Below are positions 53,508 through 55,319 of a stretch of 60,997 nucleotides of DNA, piece by piece. Under the pieces are notes generated by a model. The model saw only the letters and a program-made list of their open reading frames with translations. It ran no database searches and was not told the origin of the DNA. Origin of the DNA: Sphingomonadales bacterium (GTDB lineage: Bacteria > Pseudomonadota > Alphaproteobacteria > Sphingomonadales > Sphingomonadaceae); NCBI GenBank assembly GCA_013791705.1, contig VMTF01000025.1, positions 1 through 60,997 of the forward strand, written 5' to 3'. The position numbers and the translations under genes are program-made. The first letter of the stretch is position 1. Every line of letters begins with the position of its first letter.

Positions 53508-55319
53508 ATGGCCCTGCCGATTGCCTTCCTCGATGAAATCCGCGCGCGTGTCAGCCTTTCGGGGCTGATCGGGCGCGGGCTCAAGCTCGACAAGGCGGGG
53601 CGCGAGTTCAAGGCCTGCTGCCCGTTCCACAACGAGAAATCGCCGAGCTTCACCGTCAACGACGAGAAGGGGTTCTATCACTGCTTCGGCTGCGGCGCGC
53701 ATGGCGACGTGTTCCGCTGGCTGACCGACCGCGACGGGCTGCCGTTCCTGGACGCGGTGCGCGAGCTGGCCGGTCTGGCGGGGCTGGACCTGCCCGCGCC
53801 GAGCCCGCAGGCGGCCGAAGCGGCGGCGCGGGTGGAGACGGTGCGCGAGGCGCTGGAGATTGCCCAGGCGGTCTATGCCGGGCAGCTCGATCAGACCGGG
53901 GCGGTGCTGGAATATCTGGCCGGGCGCGGGATCGGCCCGGAGGCGCTCGGCACGTTCGGGATCGGCTATGCGCGCGGCGGCGACGGATCGCTACGCGGAT
54001 CGGGCCTTGGCGCAAAACTGGGGCTGGCGGCGGGGCTGCTGGTGCCGCGCGGCGACGGCGCGGGCCTGCGCGAGCTGTTCTGGGACCGGATCACCATTCC
54101 GATCCATGATGCGCGCGGGCGACTGGTGGGGTTCGGGGGCCGGGTGTGGGAGCCTGGCCGAACCTCTGCTTCGCCCGGCGGCTCCGCAACCGGGCAGTCG
54201 GCGCCGGTCAAGCGGCCGAAGTTCATCAACAGCCCGGATTCGGAGCTGTTCGACAAGGGCCGCACCCTGTTCAACCTGCATCGCGCTGGCCCGGCTTCGC
54301 GGCCGCAGGCGGCGAACCGGCTGCTGGTGGTGGAAGGCTATTTCGACGTGGTCGCGCTGGCGGCGGCCGGGATCGGCGAAGCGGTGGCGCCGATGGGGAC
54401 CGCGCTGACCGAAGCCCAGCTCGAACGCTGCTGGCGGCAGCATCACCGGCCGGTGCTGCTGTTCGATGGCGACGCGGCCGGCCGCAAGGCGGCGGTGCGC
54501 GCCGGCAGGATGGCGCTGCCGCTGATCGGCCCGGGGCGCGAGCTGGCGGTGGCCTTGCTGCCCGAGGGCAGGGACCCCGATGACCTGGTGCGCGCGGCGG
54601 GCCGCGGCGCGATCGAGGCGGTGATCGCCGAGGCGGGGGCGCTGCACACCTTCCTGTTCGACGCGGTAGTAATCCAGGCTCTCGCCGAAGTGCCCGGCGG
54701 CCGGGCGACGCCGGAACTGCCGCCTGAGGCCCGGGCGGCGATCTGGGATGAACTTGCGGAACTGGCGGCGACGATCGCCGAGCCGGAAACCCGGGCGCAG
54801 TACCTGGGGGTGTGGCGAGCGCGGTTCGAGCGCGAGGTTTCAGCCGTGCCGCAACTGCTGGCGGGCGAGCCGGTCCATGCGGTGATCCACGCGCCCGAGG
54901 TTGGCGCGGACGGGGCTGCCTATGCCTTTCCGGAAAGCGAGAGCGACAGCGCGGCGCGGCTGATCGCGCTGGTGCGGGCGGTGCTCAAGAAGCGCGAGGA
55001 GCGCCGAGAGATCAATGACGAGATCAAGGATATCATGGCGATGGCCGAGCTGGCCGGGTTCCAGAAGAAGGCGATTCTGGACGCGGTGCGCGACATCGAG
55101 GCTGACCTGAAGCATGGCCCGGCGGTGCGCGAGGAAGACGAGATGCACCGGGTGCTCTATCGCCGCACGCTGGGCATCCGGGGGCCGCTGAACGAGGCGT
55201 TGCTGCCGCAACTAGTCGACGGCCGGGCGCGGACCGGCTCGGCCCAGGTGAAGCGCCGGGCCAAGGTTTCGGCGCTGATCGATATGTCCGCGATCGATGC
55301 GCGCGGGGTGGAGGGATGA
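53508..55319 (+). CDS. dnaG: DnaG-type primase fused to a C-terminal GapR/DUF2312-like domain
   Basis: CHC2 finger CCPFHNEKSPSF...CFGC; KFINSP; TOPRIM VVEGYFDV, FDGDAAG, DPDD; tail resembles GapR. Confidence 0.85.
   Translation: MALPIAFLDEIRARVSLSGLIGRGLKLDKAGREFKACCPFHNEKSPSFTVNDEKGFYHCFGCGAHGDVFRWLTDRDGLPFLDAVRELAGLAGLDLPAPSPQAAEAAARVETVREALEIAQAVYAGQLDQTGAVLEYLAGRGIGPEALGTFGIGYARGGDGSLRGSGLGAKLGLAAGLLVPRGDGAGLRELFWDRITIPIHDARGRLVGFGGRVWEPGRTSASPGGSATGQSAPVKRPKFINSPDSELFDKGRTLFNLHRAGPASRPQAANRLLVVEGYFDVVALAAAGIGEAVAPMGTALTEAQLERCWRQHHRPVLLFDGDAAGRKAAVRAGRMALPLIGPGRELAVALLPEGRDPDDLVRAAGRGAIEAVIAEAGALHTFLFDAVVIQALAEVPGGRATPELPPEARAAIWDELAELAATIAEPETRAQYLGVWRARFEREVSAVPQLLAGEPVHAVIHAPEVGADGAAYAFPESESDSAARLIALVRAVLKKREERREINDEIKDIMAMAELAGFQKKAILDAVRDIEADLKHGPAVREEDEMHRVLYRRTLGIRGPLNEALLPQLVDGRARTGSAQVKRRAKVSALIDMSAIDARGVEG

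Follow-up and report, generated by a model that had tools for sequence, protein, structure and literature searches.

The window analysed here is a stretch of 60,997 nucleotides (contig VMTF01000025.1 of a Sphingomonadales bacterium, assembly GCA_013791705.1) that carries a prophage. The early region of the prophage encodes, in this order, an S24 repressor-like protein, a CII-like protein, a beta clamp, a primase, a 60-residue open reading frame, a D5-type helicase and the terminase. Reading by eye, the left arm of the prophage apparently ends near position 38,000, beside serS- and surE-like genes (35293-37351, minus strand), and an integrase-like frame is seen at 38173-39543 on the minus strand. 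In the gap between the helicase and the terminase there is an ORF of 260 residues (57432-58214) whose sole match is phrog_9306, of unknown function; where it lies, it may act as a late regulator. The features of the replication segment are as follows:

50868..52223, plus strand: phage-encoded beta sliding clamp upstream of the primase, with three DNA_pol3_beta domains (Pfam)
53508..55319, plus strand: prophage DnaG-type primase with a GapR-family domain, 603 residues in a single stop-free frame (translation)
53523..53795, plus strand: CHC2 zinc ribbon, residues 6-96 (PF01807, E 3e-30)
53889..54605, plus strand: DnaG catalytic core, DNAG_N at residues 128-260 and TOPRIM at 271-366 (Pfam)
54642..54836, plus strand: three-helix bundle after TOPRIM, DnaB_bind-like, residues 379-443 (helices of the structure model, profile matches)
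54939..55175, plus strand: GapR-family domain, residues 478-556 (Pfam, PDB sequence search, structure model, fold match)
54993..54995, plus strand: R496, which corresponds to GapR E31, with E531 of the other subunit as its predicted partner (alignment to the PDB match)
55098..55100, plus strand: E531, which corresponds to GapR K66, with reversed charge (alignment)
55176..55316, plus strand: conserved C-terminal tail (alignment, model)
55316..55498, plus strand: ORF of 60 residues that overlaps both neighbours and belongs to no family (ORF list, Pfam)
55495..57135, plus strand: separate D5/P4-family helicase of 546 residues without a primase domain (D5_N and TIGR01613 over cut-off)

The helicase has the Walker A motif GKGQDGKS. 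Many of the related loci also have a beta sliding clamp of their own, and none of the related loci L003-L163 was found to have the 60-residue ORF. The primase itself consists of a CHC2 domain, a DnaG catalytic core, a helical bundle, a GapR-family domain and a basic tail, in that order. It scores 330.5 bits with the TIGR01391 dnaG model (cut-off 283.6), and its structure model has a mean pLDDT of 84.7. In an alignment of 42 relatives, picked by hand from the 56 found, the CHC2 residues C38, H41, C59 and C62 and the acidic motif residues E276, D280, D320, D322, D356 and D358 of the core are all invariant, in agreement with the earlier note on this DNA, which had called the CHC2-TOPRIM primase intact. 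Foldseek matches the core to the Aquifex primase 2au3 with an E-value of 1.3e-30.

In cellular DnaG, a distal helicase-binding domain sits C-terminal to the helical bundle. The earlier note had placed the GapR-like domain where the DnaB-binding domain normally sits. This is right as far as the distal helicase-binding domain is concerned, which the GapR domain replaces, but the DnaB_bind-like bundle (about residues 379-443) is still there. The bundle of one relative, L013, scores above the cut-off of PF10410 (DnaB_bind), and common profile matches find the same bundle in the helicase-fused relatives. No family of DnaB-helicase-binding domains was matched at E<=0.01 in any of the 42 members searched; residues 478-603 are GapR plus tail, which leaves only the proximal bundle.

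The assignment of the domain to the GapR family comes from several directions. PF10073 (GapR_DNA-bd) aligns to residues 485-556 with an E-value of 9.5e-5 and uses positions 5-72 of its 72. At 22.4 bits, the whole protein stays just below the cut-off of 22.6, and the HMM search of the last 139 residues alone, as the earlier note had proposed for DUF2312, gives 25.9 bits, which is above it; the fused domain reaches 26.9 bits in the genome search. The same family is found at E<=0.01 in 33 of the 42 aligned relatives. All seven matches of a PDB sequence search at E<=10 are GapR, although weak (best E 0.088), and a profile built from 42 fused domains has just one other match in the six-frame translation of the genome, the genome's own gapR (E 2.5e-7). 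In the structure model of the primase, three helices span 480-515, 520-536 and 538-555, so that the long helix 1, the Gly-aromatic turn and helices 2 and 3 of the GapR family are all present. Against 48,161 chains, GapR takes the top three places with an AlphaFold model of the domain (VIA-align; Z 7.2, rmsd 1.8 Å over 78 of 78 residues), where a Z of 7.2 is modest for a helical fold. Foldseek returned no match at E<=0.001 for the domain model and did not list GapR. The leads from the ESM Atlas are viral clusters with feature scores of 0.76-0.79, in which GapR accounts for 14-18% of members, and the TM score against a GapR cluster is 0.39/0.50. With NF052541, the model for the functional GapR nucleoid protein, the score is only 16.3 bits, where the cut-off is 140. 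The C-terminal domain is a GapR-family member by sequence and fold, but the DNA channel of functional GapR is degraded in it. The fusion and the family call of the earlier note are both borne out by the Pfam, PDB and fold matches.

The fusion is real. There are 55 other protein clusters with the same layout, at 40-70% identity over residues 380-603, and the named hosts among them are Novosphingobium, including the complete genome of Novosphingobium aromaticivorans DSM 12444. A contig from another study, not flagged as a source, covers positions 53697-55090 and so crosses the junction; it differs by 20 substitutions and is ungapped. A sequencing error or two genes joined by mistake is ruled out by these clusters together with the ungapped contig. 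More distant fused forms make up 22 of 149 new matches among representatives at 50% identity, and fused forms are also found in Qipengyuania and Sphingopyxis. Public annotation carries a precomputed PF10073 on 20 of the 56 fused proteins.

The fused family is, at the same time, rare, and all its members so far come from uncharacterised prophages of sphingomonads or from viral contigs. The 80 loci of a genome scan were filled mostly by host-type dnaG, and three of them were fusions; none of 400 other sampled genomes of the bacterial family had a match at the level of the fusion (best 3.8e-16 vs 4.4e-80, with at most seven candidates scored per genome). No fusion was matched among the 50,697 phage records of INPHARED. 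A search for GapR-bearing relatives longer than 1056 residues found none, which is a weak negative, and the single shorter match, of 224 residues, may be a contig-end fragment. Taken with the borderline Pfam score, the absence from those 400 genomes could be read to mean that the domain is a decaying, functionless passenger acquired by loss of a stop codon. Conservation largely refutes this: the mean pairwise identity of the domain in 42 sequences (0.59) is close to that of DNAG_N (0.61) and higher than that of the linkers (0.45-0.53), and residues stay invariant in relatives down to 40% identity. We regard a passenger as very improbable.

The neighbourhood of the primase is nearly constant. 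The fused loci examined for it number 18, the window and 17 others, of which L027 and L086 appear to be one and the same prophage. In 17 of them a D5 helicase gene follows, and in the remaining one the contig ends 700 bases on. In L003, L004, L009 and L063, the stop codon of the tail-bearing GapR gene overlaps the start codon of the helicase. The helicases that the fusion adjoins are of two types, just 24-26% identical to each other. Among the closest primase cores there are three layouts. In the first, primase, bundle and GapR form one protein and the D5 helicase is a separate gene; in the window the two lie on separate frames with the 60-residue ORF between them. In the second, primase, bundle and helicase form a single chain without GapR (seven loci, L011-L016 and L025, plus the apparently broken L024). 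In the third, the primase is split right after TOPRIM (L006, L017, L018, L029 and L031) and the bundle is on the helicase chain, with the genes about 0.8-1.6 kb apart in L029 and L031. The clade has 13 primases that lack GapR, and for all of them the bundle is part of the D5 helicase chain or of what seems a broken gene of this kind (L024). The loci L011-L016 and L025 also have, at about residues 440-540 between the bundle and D5_N, a helical domain of some 100 residues that is unnamed, has no Pfam match above cut-off and may resemble PriCT domains.

In a quick, unrooted tree of the primase cores, the GapR group (support 94) and the two remaining layouts together (97) are sister groups, and one member of each group nests inside the other: the core of L006 is 80% identical to that of the window despite its other layout, and P0049 is the reverse case. 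Because each layout group has a member inside the other, the C-terminal modules are exchangeable. This exchange of GapR and helicase-fused layouts on near-identical cores would also suit a domain that, with its tail, is mainly a docking module for the phage D5 helicase, substituting both for the covalent link of the sister phages and for the helicase-binding domain of cellular DnaG. Such a dock would explain why the GapR domain is at the place of the helicase-binding domain, and why tail-bearing GapRs, fused or free, directly precede the helicase. The tail consists of a G-P-x-x-x-A-x-x-P motif, a flexible stretch and a basic helix at about 579-597, and similar tails are found on standalone and tandem phage GapRs. 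A specific interface would, however, have to follow two helicase types with only 24-26% identity, and the tail is modelled poorly, with a pLDDT of about 50-70. We consider docking as the main role rather unlikely; it is compatible with the dimerisation discussed below.

The residues of the domain can be compared with those of Caulobacter GapR, whose numbering was mapped through the alignment with the PDB match; residue roles are those given in the available text of PMC7498317. The comparison is between 69 distinct fused domains and 28 standalone host-type GapRs, which are related sequences and not independent events. At the eight published DNA-contact sites (K34, K42, K49, K56, K59, K60, R63 and K66), the fused domains have a mean of 3.0 basic residues vs 7.0 in the host-type proteins, and acidic residues average 1.7 vs 0.04. 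The window protein is basic at four of the eight sites (R499, K507, K521 and R528). Sites 59, 60 and 66 are basic in 1, 2 and 1 of the 69 domains, respectively, position 60 being basic in 0 of the 28 sphingomonad host GapRs as well. Still basic are K34 (60/69), K56 (47/69) and R63 (40/69), and there are new conserved arginines in helix 3 and the tail. The fused domain of L021 keeps six of the eight basic sites (PF10073 E 1.9e-19). At the tetramer interface, scored at V57, V61, I64, I78, L81 and Y82, positions 61, 81 and 82 are kept, with L81 and Y82 in every one of the 69 domains; I64 has become D or E in 50, and 57 and 78 are hydrophobic in about half. It is doubtful that the fused domains form a closed tetramer ring.

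These counts bear on the earlier suggestion that the domain targets the primase to overtwisted DNA. In Caulobacter GapR, mutation of K59 or K66 lowers DNA binding and helix 2 is required for it (available text of PMC7373187), and reversal of the channel lysines abolishes it (available text of PMC6853979). With K59 and K66 basic in one fused domain each, the acidic residues at the contact sites and the acidic I64, the suggestion is weakened. The fused domain may nevertheless still bind DNA, given the basic K34, K56 and R63 and the new arginines. One could think of an open clamp or a remodelled surface on double-stranded DNA, which would keep the primase close to overtwisted DNA or at the origin of the phage; the partly retained basic sites, the universal L81/Y82, the six basic sites of L021 and the basic tail all fit such a picture. 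We find it unlikely in view of the losses at K59, K60 and K66.

The dimer interface has fared differently. Of the 14 positions listed for it in the available text of PMC7498317, 12 are hydrophobic by sequence in at least 59 of the 69 fused domains, the exceptions being position 16 (4/69; hosts 2/28) and position 30 (28/69). The same source lists an inter-subunit bridge between E31 and K66. This pair is E/K in 27 of 28 host-type GapRs vs R/E in 67 of the 69 fused ones; the columns of R496 and E531 are R and E in all 42 aligned relatives. The pair 28/65, likewise an inter-subunit bridge, which is E/R in 28 of 28 host-type proteins, is hydrophobic on both sides in 68 of 69 fused ones, and the R26-E47 bridge is gone from the fused domains. 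The earlier note was correct that the basic R.RK stretch of GapR reads RDIE here. The glutamate of this stretch, E531, looks like one half of a compensated charge swap rather than a sign of decay.

How far the pairs go beyond the two sets was seen in 164 further domains, counted from the conserved glycine. Their 31/66 pair is acid-basic in 86, basic-acid in 28 and other in 50, and never of like charge; the 28/65 pair is acid-basic in 125, hydrophobic in 33 and other in 6. There are just two independent pairs of swap contrasts on well-supported branches, and a single clade of the fused domains with the second repeats of tandem GapR proteins is not rejected (p-AU 0.73). The pair counts are no independent proof of covariation, since the charge swap may be one inherited event. 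Some fused members (L021, P0077 and P0097) keep the canonical E28/R65 pair, and these near-canonical domains suggest that the fusion preceded the swap.

The rewired bridges predict self-dimers that exclude host GapR, and the idea of the earlier note that is weakened most is the co-oligomerisation with host GapR. Co-assembly would draw type II topoisomerase to the phage fork or, alternatively, poison the host rings. The partner is at hand: the host has a canonical gapR of its own on another contig, and 399 of 400 sampled genomes of the family match the fused-domain profile, at canonical gapR in the loci checked. The hydrophobic core is also common to both proteins. In a mixed dimer, however, host E31 would face E531 and host K66 would face R496, a like-charge pairing that none of the 164 natural domains has, and host E28 and R65 would face I530 and L493. 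As for poisoning, a free small gene, of the sort that phages commonly have, would be simpler. It is worth pointing out that bridges of this kind may not set the choice of partner, because in Caulobacter GapR the alanine bridge mutants E28A and R65A/K66A leave oligomerisation undisturbed, and E31 is placed near K34 of the same subunit (available text of PMC7373187). All considered, we judge co-assembly with host GapR quite improbable.

The swap is also found in phage GapRs outside the primase, although the assembly of the window (96.7% complete, searched with the 42-domain profile) has no second GapR of the swapped type. Of 17 tandem GapR proteins, nine have the R-E swap in repeat 2, and in eight of these nine repeat 1 still has E28/R65, a pattern that fits a pairing of each repeat with its own kind. 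The tandem proteins with a near-canonical repeat 1 and a swapped repeat 2 are P0070, P0076, P0084, P0086, P0088, P0095, P0108, P0115 and P0166. In a profile comparison, repeat 2 aligns with the fused domain at a probability of 97.5. All three tandem loci fetched (L220-L222) lie between a CHC2 primase of the L063 type and a D5 helicase, and in L063 and L194 a free, single-domain gapR with a tail lies between a primase of a different type and a D5 helicase. Among 98 other phage gapR loci, none had both a primase and a D5 helicase by our own profiles in flanks of up to 5 kb, some of them shorter. Two other kinds of fusion were seen: an FtsK-gamma domain is joined to GapR in L194 (8441-9598, minus strand, between the primase and the D5 helicase), P0088, P0119 and P0120, and phrog_4212 (353 positions, function unknown) has a GapR-like stretch at its C-terminus (274-351). 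The long frames that end in gapR in L174 and L178 are ordinary gapR with an open upstream frame, as was checked on L195.

We put forward that the GapR-family domain is a self-specific dimerisation module which holds two primases together beside a separately encoded D5 helicase, a reading to which we would give about an even chance. The domain would form the antiparallel helix-1 dimer of GapR; in the available text of PMC7373187, helix 1 alone dimerises without DNA binding. The swapped bridges would prevent mixed dimers with host GapR, so that this abundant protein could not titrate the primase. Pairing would aid priming, because one DnaG molecule can be served in trans by the zinc domain of another, a contact that is normally favoured by the helicase ring (available text of PMC2978363). 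A primase freed from the helicase chain might regain this proximity through its GapR dimer, and the sister phages would get it from the primase-helicase fusion instead. It counts against this reading that the five relatives of the third layout are split after TOPRIM, so that a covalent link of primase to helicase is not needed. More tentatively, it is possible that sphingomonad phages have evolved a replication-dedicated branch of GapR orthogonal to the host's, whose free, tandem and fused members would serve as a scaffold that dimerises the primase, docks on the D5 helicase and is insulated by the swap.

If self-specific dimerisation is true, a nucleoid-associated clamp protein has been repurposed as a part of primosome or replisome assembly, and there is a third route to the clustering of DnaG primases, beside binding to DnaB and fusion to the helicase. 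The published inter-subunit bridges gain support from the swap, which also predicts an orthogonal pair of GapRs, and the series from the canonical domain of L021 to the fully swapped ones offers a way to separate oligomerisation, DNA encircling and topoisomerase stimulation. The reach of these points is limited by the rarity of the family. In the mostly open-access literature searched on GapR, DUF2312 and UPF0335, phages and primases, we found no description of a primase-GapR fusion, and the earlier note knew of none either.

Phage-encoded members of the GapR family have been described. Erythrobacter phage R34L1 encodes a standalone GapR (PMC12185513), and DsbA of T4 has been called a GapR homologue (PMC7824862). 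Both are phage-encoded like the fused domain, but they are free small proteins, and the available text of the two accounts does not mention a primase fusion or a rewired interface.

The closest known relative of the domain is GapR of Caulobacter crescentus (PF10073/UPF0335; PDB 6CG8, 6OZX and 6K2J), with which it shares the three-helix fold (rmsd 1.8 Å over 78 residues), the hydrophobic dimer core, G52 and the L81/Y82 patch. Unlike Caulobacter GapR, the fused domain stands behind a primase and has an extra tail; its basic DNA contacts average three rather than seven, I64 is acidic, the E31-K66 pair is reversed and E28-R65 is hydrophobic, and many fused members insert four residues before helix 3. 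Like cellular DnaG (TIGR01391), the protein has CHC2, the core and the helical bundle, its motifs are intact and it scores over the NCBIfam cut-off, but GapR and tail replace the distal DnaB-binding domain, and the neighbouring helicase is of the D5/P4 type, not DnaB. The fusions of primase and D5 helicase (TIGR01613; L011-L016 and L025), which we take to be of the P4-alpha kind, are the sister clade by their cores and have the same bundle, a D5-type helicase and often an upstream beta clamp. They put on one chain of about 1060-1100 residues, without a GapR match, what the prophage in the window divides between two genes.
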